This document shows, one piece after another, positions 8,702-29,833 of a DNA stretch of 37,484 nucleotides. The stretch spans positions 1 to 37,484 of the forward strand of contig JBLMWN010000154.1 in assembly GCA_050257255.1 (NCBI GenBank), read 5' to 3'. Numbering within the stretch: the first letter of the stretch is position 1; each line of letters begins with the position of its first letter. The stretch is from Betaproteobacteria bacterium. Its GTDB lineage: Bacteria > Nitrospirota > UBA9217. The notes beneath the pieces were generated by a model, which saw nothing but the letters and a program-made list of their open reading frames with translations, had not been told where the DNA came from and made no database searches. Position numbers and translations under genes: made by a program.

Positions 8702-9157
8702 ATGGGAAACTCCACTCGAATTAAAGTGATGTTCCTCTGCACCGGCAATTCCTGCAGGAGCCAGATGGCTGAAGGGCTTGCCCGCGAGATCGGCAAGGGC
8801 ATCCTCGAGCCGTACAGCGCAGGACTTATTGCCGCAGGCGTGCATCCGCGGGCAATCGAGGTGATGAAGGAAATCGGCATAGACATTTCAAAACAGAAAT
8901 CGAAAGAGATAGACGAAGGTCTGTTGCATACGATGGATGTCGTCATCACGCTCTGCACCAGCGCTGAACAGGCTTGTCCTTGGACTCCGCCGGACATGAA
9001 GCGGCTCCATTGGCCTGTCAAAGATCCGGTGGGGATAATCGGGAGCAGGGAAGAAGTCATGAAAGAGTTTAGGCGAGCACGGGATGAAATTAAGCAAAAA
9101 ATTGATGAATTCGTGAGGGCCTTGAATCAGGAGCGCGCCGGAACCCGGCATCGCTGA
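8702..9157 (+). CDS. arsC: Thioredoxin-coupled arsenate reductase / LMW-PTP family protein
   Basis: P-loop FLCTGNSCRSQMAEG (CX5R) plus the downstream Cys pair VITLCTSAEQACP typical of Trx-coupled ArsC. No arsR/arsB/acr3 is nearby. Confidence 0.8.
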   Translation: MGNSTRIKVMFLCTGNSCRSQMAEGLAREIGKGILEPYSAGLIAAGVHPRAIEVMKEIGIDISKQKSKEIDEGLLHTMDVVITLCTSAEQACPWTPPDMKRLHWPVKDPVGIIGSREEVMKEFRRARDEIKQKIDEFVRALNQERAGTRHR

Positions 9158-9206
9158 TACAGCCGTTCGTCCGTTTTAAAACAGCGTTATGATGTAAAAA
9201 AAACAG

Positions 9207-9235
9207 TTGCGCATACAAAGCGAGACTGGTATTAT
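9207..9235 (+). promoter_or_regulatory. Sigma-70-like promoter for the HesB-like selenoprotein gene
   Basis: TTGCGC (9207-9212), 17 nt, TATTAT (9230-9235), ~65 nt upstream of the ATG at 9301. Confidence 0.45.
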
Positions 9236-9300
9236 GGTAAACTTAATTTTACTCTTGAACCCGAGGACAGGGTTTATACAGATGACATCGAGGAGGAAGC

Positions 9301-9603
9301 ATGGTTAGTTTGACAGACAACGCGGTAAACAAGTTCAAGGAAGTCGTCTCCAAGCAGGGCGCTGCCGGAGACGGTGTGCGGATCTTCGTTGTTCCGGGCG
9401 GCTGAAGCCCCTCATTGGCTATGGACATAGCCAAAGCGGCACAGATGGGCGATACGACCATCGAAGTGAACGGTCTGAAGATTTTCCTGGAGGAACGGGC
9501 CAACGCCATGCTCGCGAATACGAGCATTGATTTCCACGAGCATCAGGGTTTCGTTCTCACCGGCATGCAGCCGAGCTCATGCGGCTCTTCCTGCAGCTGC
9601 TAG
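9301..9603 (+). CDS. HesB/IscA-like A-type Fe-S carrier selenoprotein (UGA at 9403-9405 read as Sec)
   Basis: ATG 9301 follows a perfect AGGAGG (9291-9296). The same frame as track ORF 9415..9603 is interrupted only by TGA at codon 35. Translation: MVSLTDNAVNKFKEVVSKQGAAGDGVRIFVVPGG-U-SPSLAMDIAKA...FVLTGMQPSSCGSSCSC. The U aligns with the first conserved Cys of HesB/IscA (GGCxG). A C-terminal Cys cluster is present and a SECIS-like hairpin lies 9 nt downstream. Confidence 0.85.
9413..9436 (+). promoter_or_regulatory. SECIS-like mRNA hairpin directing Sec insertion at UGA 9403-9405
   Basis: TTGGCTAT (9415-9422) pairs with ATAGCCAA (9427-9434) around a GGAC loop, with a possible extra C9413:G9436 pair after an A/A mismatch. 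Its position just 3' of the in-frame UGA is as in bacterial SECIS elements. Confidence 0.7.
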
Positions 9604-9630
9604 CACAAATTATTTAAAACCACTCACCAC

Positions 9631-9669
9631 AACCGCTGTTTCCGTCCGGAAGCAGCGGTTTTCTTTTTC
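9631..9669 (+). terminator. Strong Rho-independent terminator after the selenoprotein gene
   Basis: 13-bp stem AACCGCTGTTTCC / GGAAGCAGCGGTT (one G:U) with a 4-nt loop, followed by TTCTTTTTC. Confidence 0.85.
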
Positions 9670-9839
9670 TGCATCGACTGTCCAAATCTCATCACGGCAG
9701 ACGCAGCAATGCCGGCGATAGTGCATGAATAGTCGGCGTCATCGGCGCCGATATTTGCTACAATATAAACATGCATTTACCCTGATTGACTGTCCGCAAC
9801 ACAATGTATCTTAACCACACGGGGCCGAGGATAAGTCGT

Positions 9840-11345
9840 ATGAGAAAAACGATCTCAGCGCTGCTCTGGATCATCCTCCTGTTTAGCGCCGGTGCAACGG
9901 CATATGCAGCCGAGACGAAGCGGGAGGAGAGCAAGTGTCCGCCCGGAGCAGGGCAGGCGAAGGACAGCAGCGGCATCTGCGCAGACCCCGGCCAAGGACT
10001 CCTGCAACCGCTTCTGCAAATCGGGGAAAAAGAGCCCCCTTCCGAGACGGCAGGCGCGGAGGGCCCCCGTCAACTGGATTCAAGAGCTGGAACGATAATC
10101 GTCTATTTATTCTGGGGCACGGGATGCCCACACTGCGAGGATGAAAAACGTTATCTTGCCGAACTACAACGTAAATATCCTGACGTGGAAGTCAAGGAGT
10201 GCGAGGTCTTTTACAACAAGCAGAATCGCAGCTTGTTGACGGGCTTGCTGAAGGTCCACGGCATGCAGGCCTCCGGCGTCCCGATCACCTTTGTCGATGA
10301 TAAGGTGTTCGTGGGATTTTCTCAGCAAACGAAGGAAGCGATGGAAAAGGCGATACGTGCATGCCGTGTGAAGAGCTGCGTGGATCCGGCCGATTTCCTG
10401 AAGGATAGAGGACGGCTCATAAAACCGGAACGTGCGGCACAGGCGATTTCGGGAGTTACGGTCACAACTCCCGGGAAAGAAAAAGGCTTGTCCGTCGATA
10501 TTCCGCTGTTTGGAACGCGGGATGCCGGGAACACCTCTCTCCCGCTGCTTACGCTCGTCATCGCCGGGATGGACAGCTTCAATCCTTGTGCATTCTTCGT
10601 GCTCCTGTCTCTTCTCGGGCTTCTGGTCCATGCCCAGTCCCGCAACAAGATGCTGCTGGTGGGAGGGGTCTTTGTTTTCTTTTCCGGCGTCATCTACTTC
10701 CTGTTCATGGCTGCCTGGTTGAACCTGTTCCTGGTCATGGGGAATGTTTCAGCCATCACCAAAATTGCGGGCGGCGTTTCTCTGCTGATCGCGGCGGTCA
10801 ATATCAAGGACTTTTTCATTTTTAGAAAAGGGGTTTCGCTCACGATTCCGGACAGTGCAAAGCCGAAGCTCTTCGACCGGATGAGGAAACTGCTGCGGTC
10901 CACGTCCCTCTTTTCGATCATCGCAGGCACGGCGGTCCTTGCGATCGTGGCGAATTCCTATGAGATCCTGTGTACGGCCGGGTTTCCCATGGTGTTTACG
11001 AGGATCCTGACGCTCTATAATCTTACGACGACTTCTTATTATCTGTATCTGGCATTGTACAACATCGTTTATATTGTCCCGCTTTTTATCATCGTTTTGG
11101 CGTTCACCATCACGCTCGGGAGCAGAAAACTTTCGGAACGGCAGGGAAGGACATTAAAGCTTGTCTCAGGTACGATGATGCTGGGGCTTGGCGGAGTCCT
11201 TCTCGTCAACCCCACGCTCCTCAACAGTCTTATGATGTCCTTCGTTCTCCTGGCAGGATCGATAGCGGCCTCATTTATTGTCATCTCGGTGGCGGGAAAA
11301 TACGAGACGAAGAGTCTGGGTGAAAACCGGACAAGGATGCAATAA
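9840..11345 (+). CDS. Secreted thioredoxin-fold domain (CPHC) fused to a polytopic DsbD/CcdA-like membrane domain
   Basis: Signal peptide MRKTISALLWIILLFSAGATAYA from the ATG at 9840. A low-complexity linker is followed by the Trx motif LFWGTGCPHCE. Then come ~8 hydrophobic segments with Cys-containing motifs DSFNPCAFFVLL and EILCTAGFPMVF, reminiscent of the paired transmembrane Cys of DsbD-family electron conduits. Confidence 0.65.
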   Translation: MRKTISALLWIILLFSAGATAYAAETKREESKCPPGAGQAKDSSGICADPGQGLLQPLLQIGEKEPPSETAGAEGPRQLDSRAGTIIVYLFWGTGCPHCEDEKRYLAELQRKYPDVEVKECEVFYNKQNRSLLTGLLKVHGMQASGVPITFVDDKVFVGFSQQTKEAMEKAIRACRVKSCVDPADFLKDRGRLIKPERAAQAISGVTVTTPGKEKGLSVDIPLFGTRDAGNTSLPLLTLVIAGMDSFNPCAFFVLLSLLGLLVHAQSRNKMLLVGGVFVFFSGVIYFLFMAAWLNLFLVMGNVSAITKIAGGVSLLIAAVNIKDFFIFRKGVSLTIPDSAKPKLFDRMRKLLRSTSLFSIIAGTAVLAIVANSYEILCTAGFPMVFTRILTLYNLTTTSYYLYLALYNIVYIVPLFIIVLAFTITLGSRKLSERQGRTLKLVSGTMMLGLGGVLLVNPTLLNSLMMSFVLLAGSIAASFIVISVAGKYETKSLGENRTRMQ

Positions 11346-11454: not shown

Positions 11455-12195
11455 ATGATTGAGATCAGAAATTTATCTGTCAGCGTTGAAGGGAAAAGGA
11501 TACTCAATGCCGTGAATCTCCACATTGGCCGTGGAGAATCCATTGTTTTGTTCGGTCCGAACGGTTCCGGAAAAACTTCACTCCTGAAGACGATCATGGG
11601 TATCCCGCAGTACCGGGTGGAATCGGGGACCATTATCTACCGCGGCGAGGAAATCACACAGCGAAACATCGACGAACGTGCCAGACTTGGGATCGGCATC
11701 GCATTTCAGCACCCGCCGGCGGTAAGGGGCGTGAAGCTTGAAGACATGCTGCGCATCTGCATGGAAAAGAGCGGTGTCTTCAAGGAAGAAAGGGTCATCG
11801 AGGCTGCAGAGAAACTGAATTGCATGGAATTTTTGGACAGGGACGTCAATCTGGGCTTTTCCGGCGGGGAGATCAAGCGGTCCGAACTCCTTCAGCTCCT
11901 CGTCCAGAATCCCGAATTCGTAATGTTTGATGAACCTGATTCAGGCGTGGACCTGGTCAATATCAATCTGGTGGGTAGGGTTATGAATGAATTGCTCGAG
12001 AAAGACAAAAGGGAAGACAAGAGAACCAAAGGGGGGCTCATCATAACGCATGCCGGTCACATCCTGGATTATGTCAATGCCGACAGGGCATACGTTATGC
12101 TGGACGGCACCGTAAGCTGCTCCGGGAACCCGAGGGACATTCTGGAGGACATACGGACAAAAGGGTATGAGGAGTGCGTGAGATGTCGAAGGTAA
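11455..12195 (+). CDS. sufC: Fe-S cluster assembly ATPase SufC
   Basis: Walker A GPNGSGKTSL, signature GFSGGEIKRSELLQL, Walker B FVMFDEPDSGVD, H-loop ITHAG. The size and motif spacing are typical of SufC. Confidence 0.85.
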   Translation: MIEIRNLSVSVEGKRILNAVNLHIGRGESIVLFGPNGSGKTSLLKTIMGIPQYRVESGTIIYRGEEITQRNIDERARLGIGIAFQHPPAVRGVKLEDMLRICMEKSGVFKEERVIEAAEKLNCMEFLDRDVNLGFSGGEIKRSELLQLLVQNPEFVMFDEPDSGVDLVNINLVGRVMNELLEKDKREDKRTKGGLIITHAGHILDYVNADRAYVMLDGTVSCSGNPRDILEDIRTKGYEECVRCRR

Positions 12196-13409
12196 ATCTT
12201 AAGGAAAAGGCGAAACGTGCTGAAAAGAAACCCGCAGCCATCGGACCGGATATCGACCTCGCCGCGTATTCCGTCCAGGCTGAGGAGCACGGCGGGATAC
12301 AACGATTGACAGGATTGACCGATGAAGTAAAAGAGCGTGCTGTTACCGTGGGGATAGACACCGAGGAAGCGTGCAGGGCAGGGTCATTTTTTCAGATGGA
12401 CCATTCGGTCATCCTCTCGTCAGCCTATCAAAGCGGCCTCGAGGTGATGAGCACCACCGAGGCGCTCGAAAAATACGAGTGGCTCAGGGACTATTGGTGG
12501 AAGGCCGTGCAGGTGGACGCGGACAAGTATACTGCCCAGGCCGAGCTGAAGCGGCACCACGGCTACTTTCTGAGGGCGCTCCCCGGTGCAAAGGCGGAAT
12601 TTCCCCTGCAGGCCTGTCTCTACATGGCCAGGGAAGGGCTGGCGCAGAATGTCCATAATGTCATTATCGCCGAGGAGGGCTCGGAGCTCCATATCATCAC
12701 CGGCTGCACAACGGCGCAGCACGTGAGATCAGGGCTCCATGTCGGTGTCTCCGAGTTTTACGTGAAGAAGAACGCAAAGGTAACCTTTACCATGATTCAT
12801 AACTGGGCCGAGGACGTTGCTGTGAGACCGAGGACCGGTACGATCGTGGAGGAGAACGGCGTTTTCATGAGCAACTACATTTGCATGAGACCGGTAAAAA
12901 CCCTGCAGATGTACCCCGCTGCATACTGTGTCGGTGAGAACGCCACCGTCAGGTACAATACCGTTCTTTTCGCGCCCGAAGGATCGAACATGGATGTGGG
13001 CTCCAAAGTGTTCCTGAGGGCCAAGGGGAGCAGGGCAGAGGTCGTTGCACGGGCCATAACGAAGGGGGGCGCTATCGTCACGAGGGGGAACCTGATCGGA
13101 GAGGTCTCTGGAATCAAGGCGCATTTGGAATGCCGGGGGCTCATCCTCTCTGAACGAGGATCGATCCTCGCCATCCCTGAGTTGGACGGCAGAGTGAGCG
13201 GCGTTGATATGTCCCACGAGGCGGCTGTCGGGAAGATCGCGGAGGAAGAGATCCAGTATCTTATGGCGCGCGGGCTGACCAGCGATGAGGCAACGGCCGC
13301 CATCGTCAGAGGTTTCTTGGACGTCGAGATCAAGGGCCTGCCGGAGCATCTCAAGGGAGAGATAAAAAAGGCGGTCAGCTTGGGAGAAAAAGAGGAACGT
13401 CTTTTGTGA
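12183..13409 (+). CDS. Fe-S cluster assembly scaffold, SufB/SufD family
   Basis: 408 aa from the ATG at 12183, overlapping the sufC 3' end by 13 nt. It has a beta-helix-type SufBD core and a C-terminal AAVGKIAEEEIQYLMARGLTSDEATAAIVRGFL region characteristic of SufB/SufD. SufB and SufD cannot be separated by eye. Confidence 0.8.
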   Translation: MSKVNLKEKAKRAEKKPAAIGPDIDLAAYSVQAEEHGGIQRLTGLTDEVKERAVTVGIDTEEACRAGSFFQMDHSVILSSAYQSGLEVMSTTEALEKYEWLRDYWWKAVQVDADKYTAQAELKRHHGYFLRALPGAKAEFPLQACLYMAREGLAQNVHNVIIAEEGSELHIITGCTTAQHVRSGLHVGVSEFYVKKNAKVTFTMIHNWAEDVAVRPRTGTIVEENGVFMSNYICMRPVKTLQMYPAAYCVGENATVRYNTVLFAPEGSNMDVGSKVFLRAKGSRAEVVARAITKGGAIVTRGNLIGEVSGIKAHLECRGLILSERGSILAIPELDGRVSGVDMSHEAAVGKIAEEEIQYLMARGLTSDEATAAIVRGFLDVEIKGLPEHLKGEIKKAVSLGEKEERLL

Positions 13410-13444: not shown

Positions 13445-14050
13445 CTATCTCATGTCAATCCCGAAGGCATGGGAAAACCTGTTGTGGGTCGTGAGGTCCA
13501 GTTCTATCGAAGACGACCTCAATGGATACAGCATTTTTTCAGGGCCTTCCAGCCTCGGTTCGATGACATATCGTGCTAGAGCGATGTCTTTGAAGCACCC
13601 GTCGCTCCTGTTCTTTCTGACCCGGTATTTCAATCCCATAGAAAACGCTCCATCATTGGAGGAAATTATGCTGTTCATGATGCTTGCGTATTTATCGACG
13701 TCATCGCCGGTCAATATGGCCAGCATCGTGAGTGATTTATATTTTTTTCTGCCGTGGAGGTAGAGATTCTTGACCGCATCTCCTCCCAGATAAATAACAT
13801 GGCCGGAATGGCTGATGAAGTAGTTGACGATCGGGCCGACGTGTTCCACGTCTTTTTTCTTCAGGAGGTGCGCATATGTTTCGGAAGATTTCTCGAGCCT
13901 GAACAGGGGTGTCGAGCTGAAATGGATCAGCGAAGGGTGGTTGACATCCAGGTGTCCTGGGAAGAAAAACGCTGACGGACTTTTCTTCCGAGGCGGTTCC
14001 GAAGCCGGCTTCGGAGACGTGGTCACGTCTTCAGTCTTGTGCTGAGACAT
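13445..14050 (-). CDS. Hypothetical protein (201 aa), lower GC than its neighbours
   Basis: The internal ATG at 14048-14050 has a good SD (CAGAGGAGC, 7 nt upstream). The track's longer ORF (to 14131) lacks one. No motif was recognised. It lies immediately downstream of fabF on the same strand. Confidence 0.55.
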   Translation of the reverse strand: MSQHKTEDVTTSPKPASEPPRKKSPSAFFFPGHLDVNHPSLIHFSSTPLFRLEKSSETYAHLLKKKDVEHVGPIVNYFISHSGHVIYLGGDAVKNLYLHGRKKYKSLTMLAILTGDDVDKYASIMNSIISSNDGAFSMGLKYRVRKNRSDGCFKDIALARYVIEPRLEGPEKMLYPLRSSSIELDLTTHNRFSHAFGIDMR

Positions 14051-14145
14051 TATGCCGCTCCTCTGAATGCCGATATTATAATCGAAACCGGGGGAAAAGA
14101 GAAGAGATTGTTTCGTGATAGTAGCGCACATGGATGTTATTTTTA

Positions 14146-16819: not shown

Positions 16820-18400
16820 ATGGAAAAAGGTTATCTCGCGCTGGTGCTGCACAGTCATTTGCCCTTTGTGCGGCACCCGGAGCACGATCAGTTTCTCGAA
16901 GAGGATTGGCTGTACGAGGCGATCACCGAGACCTATATCCCGCTCATCAATGTGTTCGACGGGCTTGTGAACGACGGCGTGGAATTTCGCCTGACCATGA
17001 GTCTCACACCCACGCTCATCTCCATGCTTGCCGACCCGCTGCTTCAGCAGCGCTACCTGCGGCACATTAACAAGCTTATCGGACTGGCTGACAACGAGAT
17101 CGAGCGCACGAAGCATGAACCGCAGTTCAATTCCCTCGCACGCATGTACCGGGACCTATTCGCCAACGCCCGGTTCGTTTTCGAGGAGAAGTACGGCCGG
17201 AACCTCGTGACAGCGTTCCGGAAGTTCCAGGATCTTGGCAAGCTCGAGATCATCACCTGTGCGGCAACGCACGGGTTTCTGCCGCTCATGGAAAACACCA
17301 AGGCAGTGCGCGCGCAGATCATGGTTGCTGTTGAGCATCATGCGAAACATCTCGGACAGGCGCCGAAAGGCATGTGGCTGCCGGAGTGCGGATACTATGA
17401 GGGACTCGACGAAATCCTGAAAGAGGCGGGCATCCGCTACTTTTTCATGGATTCCCACGGGATATTTCACGCCACCCCGCGGCCCAAGTACGGCGTCTAT
17501 ACGCCGATTTACTGCCGCTCAGGCGTTGCCGCCTTCGGCAGGGACATCGAGTCGTCCAAGCAGGTCTGGAGCTCCATCGAAGGCTATCCCGGCGACTACA
17601 ACTACCGTGATTTCTATCGCGACGTGGGATTCGATCTCGACTACGACTATGTCAAACCCTATCTCCATCATGACGGGGTGCGTGTGAACCTGGGCATCAA
17701 ATATTACCGGATCACCGGCGCATCAAACCACAAAGAACCTTATGTCCGGCAATGGGCCCTCGATCGTGCGGCAACCCATGCCGGCAATTTTTTGTTCAAC
17801 CGGGAGAAGCAGGTTGAATGGCTCAGCGGTGTGTTCGGGGACCGGAAGCCGATCATCGTTGCGCCCTACGACGCTGAGCTTTACGGCCATTGGTGGTTCG
17901 AGGGGCCGGACTGGATCAACTTCCTGATCCGCAAGACCGTGTATGACCAGAAAACGGTGCGTCTGATCACGCCGATGGAATACCTCGCCGAAAATCCCCG
18001 GTGCCAGGTCGCCACGCCCTCCCGGTCGAGCTGGGGATACAAGGGATATGCCGAAGTGTGGCTCGATGGGTCGAACGACTGGATCTACCGGCACCTGCAT
18101 AAGGCGGCGGACCGCATGATCGAGCTGGCGCAGGCCTTCCCGCGAGCCGAAGGACTACTTCATCGGGCGCTCAACCAGGCGGCGCGTGAGCTCCTGCTCG
18201 CGCAAAGCTCTGACTGGGCCTTCATCATGAAGACCGGAAGCCACGTAGAATACGCTGTCCGGAGAACGAAGGAGCATGTCCTCAGATTCACGAGGCTGTA
18301 CCAGGACATCAAAGGAAACTGTATTGACGAAAGATGGCTCGGCGATATAGAATATAAAGATAATGTTTTCCCGGATATCGACTACAGCGTCTATGCTTAA
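16820..18400 (+). CDS. GH57-family 1,4-alpha-glucan branching enzyme (DUF1957-containing)
   Basis: The ATG at 16820 is preceded by GGAGG (16811-16815). N-terminus MEKGYLALVLHSHLPFVRHPE, then ...WLPECGY..., DAELYGHWWFEGPDW and SSDWAFIM are typical of GH57 branching enzymes. The track's upstream extension crosses the terminator. Confidence 0.85.
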   Translation: MEKGYLALVLHSHLPFVRHPEHDQFLEEDWLYEAITETYIPLINVFDGLVNDGVEFRLTMSLTPTLISMLADPLLQQRYLRHINKLIGLADNEIERTKHEPQFNSLARMYRDLFANARFVFEEKYGRNLVTAFRKFQDLGKLEIITCAATHGFLPLMENTKAVRAQIMVAVEHHAKHLGQAPKGMWLPECGYYEGLDEILKEAGIRYFFMDSHGIFHATPRPKYGVYTPIYCRSGVAAFGRDIESSKQVWSSIEGYPGDYNYRDFYRDVGFDLDYDYVKPYLHHDGVRVNLGIKYYRITGASNHKEPYVRQWALDRAATHAGNFLFNREKQVEWLSGVFGDRKPIIVAPYDAELYGHWWFEGPDWINFLIRKTVYDQKTVRLITPMEYLAENPRCQVATPSRSSWGYKGYAEVWLDGSNDWIYRHLHKAADRMIELAQAFPRAEGLLHRALNQAARELLLAQSSDWAFIMKTGSHVEYAVRRTKEHVLRFTRLYQDIKGNCIDERWLGDIEYKDNVFPDIDYSVYA

Positions 18401-19784
18401 GCCATCGGTCCTGAAAGAACTTACGAAGATCGTCGATTCTGCCAACCTCTTGACATCGCCGGAAGAGCTGACCGTATATTCCTACGACGCAACCCGGCGG
18501 CAGGCCCTTCCCTGGGCCGTAGCGCGACCCGCATCGTCCTCTGAGATCTCGAAGATACTCACGCTTGCCAATCGCGAACTGTTCCCGGTTGTGCCGCGTG
18601 GCGCAGGGACCGGCATGTCAGGCGGGTCCGTTCCGGTTGAGGGCGGGCTCGTGCTCTCGTTTGAACGCATGAACAAGATTCTTGAGATCGACGAGGAGGA
18701 TTTCCTCGCGGTCGTTGAGCCGGGTGTTGTCACCGGCGATCTGCAGCGCGCCGTGGAGGCAAGGGGGCTCTTTTATCCGCCCGACCCTGCGAGCCACCAG
18801 TTCTGCACACTGGGCGGCAATATCGCCGAGTGCGCAGGGGGGCTCCGGGCGGCGAAGTACGGCGTCACGAAGGACTATGTGCTCGGCCTTGAGGTCGTGC
18901 TGCCCACGGGCGAGATCATCACCACCGGGGCGCGGACCATCAAGAGCGTGGCCGGATACGACCTGACGAAACTCATCATCGGTTCCGAAGGAACCCTCGG
19001 CGTGGTCACGACGAATATCCTAAAGCTCCACCCTTTGCCCGAGAGCGTCAAGGCCTAGGCCGCGTATTTCAATAAGGTGGACGAAGACGCGCGGGCATCG
19101 GCGAAGATTTTAGCGAGCAGGATCGTACCGCGTGCACTCGAGCTGGTTGATCAGGCGGCTCTCCGGGCCGTAGAGACCTATCTCAAGGAAGACCTTTCCG
19201 GGGGTGCCGCAGCCATGCTGCTCGTTGAGGTCGACGGACCCGTGGAGACCACAATGCGCGAAAGCGATCGGATCGCGGATATTCTGACCGGTTCCGGCGC
19301 AGCGCGGGTGCTCCGGGCCGAATCCGCCGCGGATCGGGAGCATCTGTGGAAGGCGAGGCGCTCGATTTCGCCTGCGCTCTATACCATCAAGCCCAAAAAG
19401 GTGAACGAAGACATCGTAGTCCCGAGGAGCAAAATAGCGGACATCCTGCGCGAGATTGATGCGATCGGCCGACGGCATGAACTCCTGATTGTGAATTTCG
19501 GCCATGCAGGCGACGGCAACATCCATACGAACATCCTGATCGATGAAGGGGATGTTCCGCGGGCGGAAGCAGCGGTAAAAGAAATCTTTGCAGCCACGCT
19601 CCGCCTGGGCGGCAGCATCTCGGGAGAGCATGGGATCGGTTTGTCAAAGGCAGCGTATCTCCCGATGGAGCTTGGCCCGGAAGCGCTGGGAGCGATGAAG
19701 CGAATCAAACAGGCACTGGACCCGAACAATATCCTGAATCCGGGGAAGATATTTGTCGATGCGAACGGCCCGAAGCCACGCTGA
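18393..19784 (+). pseudogene. FAD-linked oxidase (GlcD / D-lactate dehydrogenase family) interrupted by one in-frame TAG at 19056-19058
   Basis: Track ORFs 18363..19058 and 19077..19784 share a frame. The N-terminal part carries the FAD_binding_4 motif (VVPRGAGTGMSGGSVP). The C-terminal part is the FAD-oxidase_C domain (ISGEHGIGLSKA...LDPNNILNPGK). The sequence reads through as LPESVKA-*-AAYFNKVDEDA with no frameshift. The ATG at 18393 overlaps the GH57 stop (ATGCTTAA). Confidence 0.7.
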
Positions 19785-29437: not shown

Positions 29438-29474
29438 CCCTCTCCTTCAAGGAGAGGGATGGGGTGAGGATGGG
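29438..29474. repeat. Left inverted repeat of the DUF559 cassette (hairpin plus G-rich arm)
   Basis: CCCTCTCC-ttcaa-GGAGAGGG (29438-29458) then ATGGGGTGAGGATGGG (29459-29474). It is an imperfect reverse complement of 29839-29876. The DUF559 stop codon (29447-29449) lies in the loop. Confidence 0.65.
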
Positions 29475-29833
29475 TCATTTTTTATTACTTCCTGTAATAT
29501 TTTTTCTGAAACAGCTTCGAACTTTTGCAGGACTTCATGGTTCCAAAATCGAAGAACGCGAAAACCGGCTTTTTCCGGCAATTTCGTTCTGATGCCATCT
29601 TCGGCTCTTTGTTCCTGATGCTGACCCCCGTCAACTTCAATAACAAGCTGCTTTTCAAGGCAAACAAAATCGAGCATGAAATCTTCAAATGGGTGCTGCC
29701 TCCGAAATTTCAAACCGATCATTTGCCTGCCGCGCAGGAGGTTCCATAGTTTTCTCTCGGCGTCAGTCATGTTGCGTCGCAACGCGCGTTGTAGGTTGCC
29801 TTGATAAATTGCCTTGTTTGTCTGGCCTCGCAT
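29447..29833 (-). CDS. DUF559 domain protein (Vsr-like / PD-(D/E)xK endonuclease fold)
   Basis: LRRNMTDAERKLWNLLRGRQMIGLKFRRQHPFEDFMLDFVCLEKQLVIEVDGGQHQ...RTKLPEKAGFRVLRFWNHEVL matches the DUF559 consensus. GC is lower than in the flanking nuo genes. Confidence 0.85.
   Translation of the reverse strand: MRGQTNKAIYQGNLQRALRRNMTDAERKLWNLLRGRQMIGLKFRRQHPFEDFMLDFVCLEKQLVIEVDGGQHQEQRAEDGIRTKLPEKAGFRVLRFWNHEVLQKFEAVSEKILQEVIKNDPSSPHPSP

Follow-up and report, generated by a model that had tools for sequence, protein, structure and literature searches.

A conserved in-frame UGA in a divergent HesB/IscA-superfamily gene of Nitrospirota: a probable selenoprotein missed by gene calling

HesB-like selenoproteins have been recognized as a family from the mid-2000s onward (PMC1794560) and are represented by the model TIGR01911 (HesB_rel_seleno), which is listed with the selenocysteine (Sec) motif U-x-G-P (PMC13188914, Table 1). 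They are small proteins of ~90-100 residues that adopt the A-type-carrier fold, contain a single Sec in the Cys-loop that follows conserved glycines, and occur in anaerobes alongside other selenoproteins. A HesB-like protein is also encoded by orf7 of the ars1 operon of Bacillus sp. CDB3 (PMC4562236). The subject of this work is a gene at positions 9301-9603 of contig JBLMWN010000154.1 (assembly GCA_050257255.1; GTDB lineage Nitrospirota, UBA9217), which was analyzed over 37,484 nucleotides, here termed the window. With high confidence, this gene is a monocistronic unit encoding one 100-residue selenoprotein of the HesB/IscA (A-type carrier) superfamily, in which UGA35 would be recoded through a selenocysteine insertion sequence (SECIS) and Sec35 would act as a ligand.

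The window protein resembles the TIGR01911 proteins in size, predicted fold and the placement of its predicted single Sec, and it shares length and architecture with the proteins described by a second selenoprotein model, NF038090 (IscA_HesB_Se), although it scores below the cut-off of that model. The main differences from the TIGR01911 proteins are the Sec motif, which is U-S-P-S in the window protein and U-R-P-S, U-G-H-S or U-G-L-S elsewhere in its clade rather than the published U-x-G-P, the different tail (CGSSCSC), and the distribution of the clade, which hardly extends beyond Nitrospirota and whose Cys-form relatives do not exceed 47% identity. With the A-type carriers IscA, SufA and ErpA (1S98, 1R94, 1X0G, 2D2A) and Aquifex AQ_1857 (1NWB), the window protein has in common the predicted fold, the three-ligand layout composed of residue 35 and a C-terminal C-x-C, and the adjacency of its gene to SufC/SufB-type assembly genes. 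It differs from these carriers in the predicted Sec in place of Cys35, within a GG-U-SPS rather than a GG-C-SGF loop, in terminating at the CxC with an extra Cys94 upstream where the carriers continue as CGCGxSF, and in being encoded by a monocistronic gene outside any isc or suf operon. Since HesB-like selenoproteins are long accepted, the window clade represents a new branch rather than a new kind of protein, a divergent and apparently obligately Sec-containing one.

Reading frame, in-frame TGA and hairpin

The features of the locus are the following.

9207-9235, plus strand: putative sigma-70-type promoter (-35 TTGCGC at 9207-9212, 17-nt spacer, -10 TATTAT at 9230-9235), proposed from its conservation
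9291-9296, plus strand: Shine-Dalgarno sequence AGGAGG, 4 nt before the ATG, read from the sequence
9301-9603, plus strand: predicted selenoprotein coding sequence of the HesB/IscA superfamily, 100 codons and TAG (translation, PF01521, structure alignments, pN/pS)
9403-9405, plus strand: in-frame UGA, codon 35, almost certainly read as Sec (conservation, alignment with the ligand Cys)
9415-9434, plus strand: SECIS-like hairpin (frozen synonymous sites, consensus fold, z-score, contrast with Cys forms)
9580-9600, plus strand: C-terminal Cys cluster C94-G-S-S-C98-S-C100, presumed source of the remaining ligands (invariance of the three Cys, alignment of C98-S-C100)
9631-9670, plus strand: intrinsic terminator with a 13-bp stem, 4-nt loop and T-run, from a terminator search (hairpin 9631-9660)

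The frame that opens at ATG 9301 runs to the TAG at 9601-9603, and on translation its sole interruption is the TGA at 9403-9405. The joined product reads ...GDGVRIFVVPGG-U-SPSLAMDIAKA...SSCGSSCSC, and Cys94, Cys98 and Cys100 are invariant across the family alignment. The sequence AGGAGGA ahead of the ATG is likewise invariant (18 of 18 aligned loci); no Shine-Dalgarno sequence was read before Met41 or before the TTG at 9415. The program-made list of open reading frames holds only two pieces of the gene, 9301-9405 (34 residues) and 9415-9603 (62 residues, TTG start). Of the 25 ordinary genes in the window, 12 end in TGA, more than in either other stop codon, and TGA is thus not a reassigned codon.

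A search of 5.8 billion proteins retrieved 191 relatives (clusters at 90% identity), of which 120 were listed. Among these 120, 118 are C-terminal fragments of 60-63 residues, and the two full-length entries among the matches listed read GGWSPS, the TGA having been called as Trp. Public records label the 60-residue piece as a “hypothetical protein” or as an “IscA” fragment. A scan of species-representative genomes yielded 37 loci with the TGA and one Cys relative. Thirty-six of the 37 are labelled Nitrospirota, Nitrospirae, Nitrospiria or Nitrospiraceae, the other being Syntrophobacter sp. SbD1, and all 37 have the TGA at the same column together with the ATG, an AGGAGG-type Shine-Dalgarno sequence and the 34 conserved codons. 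In the Cys relative, an alphaproteobacterial gene (L038), the TGA column is occupied by Cys. The TGA is also kept in all eight of the distant loci (40-64% identity) that were fetched by protein look-up. Metagenomes were scanned for exact matches to the 18-nt hairpin core, which gave at least 120 stretches; 80 loci were fetched, and 73 of the 79 that were scorable have the TGA in register, within a GG-TGA-(S/R)PSLAMDIAK frame, giving 54 distinct full-length proteins. Overall, more than 100 independent contigs keep the TGA, which excludes sequencing error and recent decay.

Selection was measured on 37 distinct sequences as the proportion of synonymous differences (pS) and the ratio of nonsynonymous to synonymous proportions (pN/pS). 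Before the TGA, codons 2-34 have a pS of 0.68 and a pN/pS of 0.19; after it, codons 46-91 have a pS of 0.63 and a pN/pS of 0.275. Both halves are therefore translated and constrained. In the intervening hairpin region, codons 36-45, pS falls to 0.30 and pN/pS to 0.015. Given this frame and the occupancy of the column by Cys in homologues, UGA35 is almost certainly read as selenocysteine.

The hairpin, TTGGCTAT-GGAC-ATAGCCAA, lies at 9415-9434, nine nucleotides past the TGA. Its conserved stem is composed of seven base pairs (9416-9422 with 9427-9433) capped by the apical tetraloop GGAC (9423-9426), and an eighth pair, 9415-9434, is present only where codon 39 is TTG. The 42 nucleotides from the UGA fold with -14.9 kcal/mol (z = -2.93 against dinucleotide shuffles, 1 of 200 shuffles being equally good). 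A longer stretch of 66 nucleotides is not special (z = -0.16), so that thermodynamics alone is insufficient to make the case. Constraint at the RNA level is seen in codon usage: Ser36, Ala40, Asp42, Ile43 and Ala44 each use one codon form in all 37 sequences, a pattern found at 0 of the 29 codons elsewhere that specify an invariant degenerate amino acid. This stem is the only one retained in the RNAalifold consensus fold.

Relatives that have Cys in place of the TGA separate the RNA from the peptide. L048 and L049 keep the same type of loop peptide, PSLAMD/PSLALD, with other codons; the stem is weakened to five of seven pairs in the former and abolished in the latter, and the equivalent segments fold no better than shuffles (z = +1.05 and +0.24). 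L046, with two amino-acid changes, nevertheless keeps the stem by way of a G-C to G-U change. The hairpin is thus tied to the TGA and not to the peptide.

The apical loop of the Escherichia coli fdhF SECIS is GGUC. Compared with SECIS elements of the fdhF type, the window hairpin lacks an evident bulged U, has G-A in the loop where fdhF has G-U, and is unusually invariant within its family, and so without covariation. Similar to the fdhF type and to the bSECISearch model, it is a stem-loop within the coding sequence that follows closely on the UGA, has G residues in its apical loop and is spaced alike, its stem lying 9-10 nt and its loop 17 nt from the UGA. Its position, size and G-containing loop fit those described for bacterial SECIS elements (PMC1794560, Fig. 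4 legend), and on these grounds the hairpin is predicted to act as a SECIS that binds SelB.

An A-tract (9196-9203) precedes the putative promoter, which lies below the threshold of a consensus scan. Across 18 aligned loci, among them loci with differing upstream genes, the GTTG of the -35 element is invariant, the next C is nearly so, and the -10 element is conserved as TAnnAT; of 30 loci, 28 have TTGCnn-17-TAnnAT at the same place and with the same spacing, irrespective of the gene that lies upstream. Its conservation suggests that the element functions as a promoter. Downstream, 41 of 44 loci have a terminator-like hairpin with a T-run no more than 110 nt past the stop, on stems that differ in sequence, and only one of the 44 has such an element in the 150 nt upstream of the gene. 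With its own conserved promoter and terminator, the gene is a self-contained monocistronic unit.

A separate observation concerns the leader of ~55-65 nt between the promoter and the Shine-Dalgarno sequence (~9242-9290 in the window). As compared in the window and in L001, L003, L004, L007, L011, L021, L029 and L033, it often holds a hairpin at a similar position with a different sequence, for example CTGAGACAA/TTGTCTCAG in L004, CCGAG/CTCGG in L003 and AACCC/GGGTT in the window. This hairpin could be a stabilizing or regulatory element.

A preliminary description of the locus, made from the sequence alone, had reported an ATG at 9301 behind AGGAGG, a frame broken only by TGA at codon 35, a hairpin nine nucleotides after the UGA, a promoter-like element and a strong terminator belonging to the gene, and a gene that ordinary calling would miss. 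Direct reading bears out the frame and its start, and the conservation results given above uphold the remainder, including the 34 codons upstream of the TGA, which are under purifying selection.

Family placement, possible cargo and a possible arsenic link

The joined product matches the Pfam family PF01521 (Fe-S_biosyn) with 37.8 bits when residue 35 is entered as Cys and 33.5 bits when it is entered as X, the gathering threshold being 26.3. The match is one continuous stretch that spans the TGA, with residues 2-91 on profile positions 3-100 of 110. In alignments with solved structures, the TGA coincides with the ligand Cys of the GGC/SGC motif in Aquifex AQ_1857 (1NWB), Haemophilus HI1723 (2APN) and E. 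coli IscA (1S98, Cys35), and C98-S-C100 coincides with the C-G-C of AQ_1857 and HI1723. The three A-type ligand positions, Cys35, Cys99 and Cys101 in E. coli IscA, are all matched, the first by the predicted Sec rather than Cys. Of 125 full-length relatives, 118 carry Cys at the position of the predicted Sec. When 1.84 billion representatives were searched exhaustively, no full-length relative exceeded 47% identity, and the nearest ones form a group with the pattern GG-CC-(G)PS...SSCCG.

The preliminary description had assigned the joined product to the A-type carriers, with the UGA at the first conserved ligand Cys and the C-terminal Cys cluster at the other ligand positions, and it had mentioned a HesB-like selenoprotein family as already described. 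The PF01521 score, the TGA on the Cys column and the pairing of CSC with CGC agree with this placement, and the family is indeed on record (PMC1794560, PMC13188914). What that description observed is correct in every detail open to checking, and its interpretation is supported, with two qualifications: the clade falls short of the cut-offs of both selenoprotein models, and the Sec-decoding host that the description implied has indirect support, from relatives and from published selB and selC.

The proposed mechanism is as follows. The gene would be transcribed from its own promoter to its own terminator as a monocistronic message. During translation, the 7-8-bp GGAC hairpin, 9-10 nt past the UGA, would recruit SelB with Sec-tRNASec to the ribosome, and UGA35 would be recoded as selenocysteine. 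Sec35 would stand where A-type carriers have the first of their three cluster-ligating cysteines, and the remaining ligands would come from the flexible C-terminal tail, namely Cys98 and Cys100 with Cys94. A Sec at the first ligand position combined with a Cys-rich tail makes a thiophilic metal center the most likely occupant; the protein would most likely hold this center on an Se/S3 site and then pass it on.

Two kinds of cargo can be considered for such a site, and the genes around the locus bear on both.

8702-9157, plus strand: thioredoxin-type arsenate reductase ArsC, low-molecular-weight protein tyrosine phosphatase fold (PF01451, 82.8 bits; TIGR02691, 165.9 bits, below its cut-off of 174.3)
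9786-11345, plus strand: glutaredoxin-like membrane protein, 519 residues, TTG start
11455-12195, plus strand: SufC (family match)
12174-13409, plus strand: SufB/SmsB-like scaffold (family match)

The tentatively preferred cargo is an Fe-S cluster handed over by the neighboring SufC/SufB-like system. It is favored because of the superfamily to which the protein belongs and because of the recurrent adjacency of the gene to two different SufC/SufB-like pairs. Neighbors were counted by batch Pfam searches and by tblastn. Of 37 metagenome contigs, 28 have a gene for a SufC-like ATPase within 1.2 kb on the downstream side, of one of two paralogous types (14 contigs each); in genome loci, such a gene lies immediately downstream in 17 and follows a gene for the glutaredoxin-like membrane protein in seven more, the window included. 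Two features tell against an Fe-S cargo: a strong terminator parts the gene from sufCB, and the recurrent neighbors outside the clade are ars or metal genes and not suf genes.

In the protein encoded at 9786-11345, an N-terminal glutaredoxin/thioredoxin-like domain with a CPHC motif is joined to a long hydrophobic region of several membrane passes. The protein reaches the threshold of no Pfam family (a weak Glutaredoxin/YruB match only), and about eight related loci keep its gene next after that of the selenoprotein. For the SufBD-core protein at 12174-13409, the best NCBIfam match is to SmsB of the “SUF-like minimal system”, at 210 bits against a cut-off of 650, followed by SufB (187.5 bits). 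In related genomes, the SufCB position is taken by either of two SufC/SufB-like pairs that are paralogous to each other.

The main alternative, possible but the less probable of the two, is that the cargo is As(III) or another soft metalloid. According to this explanation, which accepts the same selenoprotein, a three-coordinate site of high affinity would be built from the selenol together with the C-terminal cysteines, and the protein would either bind As(III)/Sb(III) for the ars system, as a chaperone or a buffer, or be an Fe-S carrier specialized for arsenite stress. The four nearest Cys-form relatives sampled (38-47% identity, with GG-CC-(G)PS loops and SSCCG-type tails; L048 735-1028, L049 379-720, L050 199-483, L051 675-965) all have arsD immediately upstream, and the gene downstream is arsA in three and encodes an S-adenosylmethionine-dependent methyltransferase in one. 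In L051, the operon continues with arsC and a gene for an ArsP-like permease. The gene directly upstream of the Sec-form gene is an LMWPc gene, taken as a thioredoxin-type arsC, in 19 of 38 genome loci and a member of SBF, the Pfam family of the Acr3 arsenite pumps, in three more; among metagenome contigs, 30 of 56 have arsC in this place. Vicinal cysteines are well-established ligands of As(III), Cys12/13/18 of ArsD being an example. The flanks of distant Sec forms contain genes for ArsR-type HTH_5 proteins (L045, L047), LMWPc (L047) and HMA (L040), and the HesB-like orf7 noted above lies within the Bacillus CDB3 ars1 operon (PMC4562236).

The window gene itself, however, fits this setting less closely. 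It shares with the ars-operon HesB-like proteins, which include its closest full-length relatives, the PSLAMD loop, and an arsenate reductase gene is its commonest upstream neighbor. These proteins differ from it in having a vicinal Cys-Cys pair, which the Sec forms lack, and an SSCCG tail, with neither the TGA nor a stable hairpin, and they are encoded inside arsD-arsA operons. Around the window gene there is arsC only, with no arsD, arsA, arsR or arsenite pump gene. No terminator was found in the window between arsC and the selenoprotein gene, but the latter has its own promoter, and co-transcription with arsC is not demonstrable. Within the clade, moreover, the SufC/SufB-like genes are the more consistent neighbors, and an Fe-S cluster remains the preferred cargo.

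The nearest Cys relatives suggest an uncharacterized HesB-like component of ars operons. A broader, speculative proposal is that HesB-like proteins of the U/CC type, the Nitrospirota selenoprotein among them, are no ordinary Fe-S carriers but an uncharacterized component of arsenic systems, either an As(III) chaperone acting with ArsD and ArsA or an arsenite-proof Fe-S carrier; this seems rather unlikely. If it were true, a selenol would have replaced a thiol in the Nitrospirota branch, where the gene would have turned into a unit of its own between arsC and SUF-like machinery. One distant Sec form, L047 550-840 (GCA_040755805.1, JBFMAM010000081.1), reads D-G-C-U-G-P-P-LAMD, with a Cys just before the Sec, and has a CCG tail; it retains an identical 18-nt hairpin core, and its flanks hold genes for an ArsR-type HTH protein, hypC and LMWPc.

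Selenocysteine decoding and other readings of the UGA

All retrieved loci were screened for frames conserved across a TGA, and the positive control was recovered. The one convincing further protein is a multihaem cytochrome c of ~435 residues, present in nine loci and as a fragment in a tenth, which matches NF040886, “multiheme c-type cytochrome (seleno)protein ExtKL” (MccSep), with 605 bits. It lies a few kilobases from the HesB-like gene on the same contigs of relatives: L003 (minus strand, ~13865), L008, L016, L018, L019, L021, L022, L028 and L034, with the fragment in L037. These loci encode VEMTNRAGHAIPDG-TGA-PTPNR, corresponding to the predicted Sec site AGHAIPDG-U-PTPNR. MccSep is a polysulfide-reducing selenoenzyme known mainly from Desulfobacterota and Nitrospirota, and in Geobacter its Sec was demonstrated by mass spectrometry of the near-identical peptide VEMTNHAGHSIPDGUPTPNR (PMC13510729). 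In addition, selB and selC have been described in a Nitrospirae lineage (PMC8124441). Together, the MccSep genes of relatives and the published selB and selC give good support for Sec decoding at the level of the lineage, short of proof for this genome. When the window was scanned for other genes with an in-frame TGA, the one long candidate, 27911-26322 on the minus strand, was rejected, as Pfam identifies a NuoN-type antiporter subunit in another frame.

Several results weigh against the selenoprotein reading. No selA, selB, selD or tRNA-Sec gene was found in the 37-kb window or in the flanks of the 37 loci, and MccSep is not in the window, where the slot that matches its position (13445-14131, minus strand) holds an unrelated open reading frame of 228 residues with no family match. 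No compensatory changes in the hairpin were detected by RNAalifold, because the hairpin is invariant; it is supported by conservation rather than covariation. Rfam returned no matching family, either for the whole window at gathering thresholds or for 9280-9680 under permissive settings. Of the curated family models, TIGR00049 (iron-sulfur cluster assembly accessory protein) gives 52.5 bits against a cut-off of 58.8, TIGR01911 gives 15.5 against 66.35, and NF038090 gives 41.6 against 85, this last over an end-to-end alignment of residues 1-100 with profile positions 1-101 of 101; the nearest Cys relatives likewise fall below the cut-offs of both selenoprotein models. The AlphaFold (AF2) model of a full-length homologue (P0001) has a mean predicted local distance difference test (pLDDT) score of 60.4, with the Sec loop and C-terminal tail below 50. 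The only significant Foldseek neighbors of this low-confidence model are A-type carriers, with AQ_1857, IscA and SufA at the top (template modelling (TM) scores of 0.64-0.66) and the [2Fe-2S] IscA 1X0G (TM 0.55) and DsrR 2K4Z (TM 0.61) lower down; being of low confidence, the model gives weak fold support only and is of no use for ligand geometry.

A second alternative is that a near-cognate or suppressor tRNA reads through UGA35 and inserts a residue other than Sec, for example Trp, Cys or Gly, with the hairpin only slowing the ribosome or blocking release factor 2. Besides the Sec machinery that was not found in the window or locus flanks, this explanation could draw on the two database entries that give Trp at the codon, but that Trp results from the genetic code chosen by the annotators. 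The residue in homologues is Cys, the chemical analogue of Sec, and the position is a metal ligand by alignment; the position, size and G-containing loop of the hairpin match bacterial SECIS elements (PMC1794560); the lineage has a proven Sec family with a conserved TGA (MccSep; PMC13510729); and TGA is the main ordinary stop in the window. Read-through without Sec is accordingly considered very improbable. Least credible is the absence of any recoding, whether with a true stop in a pseudogene or through sequencing error or with two small proteins of 34 and 60-62 residues, which is the output of every gene caller and is echoed by the separate database entries for the 34- and 60-residue pieces, but which is contradicted by the TGA kept in more than 100 independent contigs, by purifying selection on both halves, by their joining into one continuous Fe-S_biosyn domain (profile positions 3-100) when neither half folds alone, and by the missing Shine-Dalgarno sequences before Met41 and TTG 9415, and which leaves the hairpin without explanation.

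Further genes of the window and implications

Two other loci in the window were noted. At 18363-19784 on the plus strand, a GlcD-like FAD-linked (flavin adenine dinucleotide) oxidase gene (FAD_binding_4 and FAD-oxidase_C) is split into two open reading frames by a single in-frame TAG at 19056-19058. Six related loci have Leu or Val at this codon (VRT-L-AAFF, compared with VKA-*-AAYF in the window), and pyrrolysine or other recoding was rejected on that ground; the TAG is a nonsense mutation or a sequencing error, for which a single change from TTG to TAG is the simplest account. At 29447-29833 on the minus strand, a DUF559 (endonuclease-like) gene is located between Proton_antipo_M (NuoL/M/N-type) genes of an NADH-dehydrogenase cluster and looks like an insertion into that operon.

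The selenoprotein clade, which comprises 191 protein clusters at 90% identity, occurs in at least 120 metagenome stretches and is present in most of the Nitrospirota metagenome-assembled genomes sampled, is stored in public databases almost only as fragments of 60 residues. As the NF038090 cut-off is not reached, NCBI annotation rules would presumably not flag the gene, and since neither curated selenoprotein hidden Markov model catches the clade, censuses of the Nitrospirota selenoproteome undercount. A new or retrained model would mend this.

With an almost invariant SECIS and an apparently obligate Sec, the gene is a handy marker of Sec decoding in uncultured sulfur-cycling bacteria, and the clade offers a natural test case for Sec at an Fe-S or metal ligand position. 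The arsD/arsA placement of the nearest Cys relatives points to an unstudied arsenic-related role for HesB-like proteins. The value of the locus thus lies in exposing a systematically mis-annotated selenoprotein clade of Nitrospirota, together with its invariant SECIS and the lead that it provides into ars operons.

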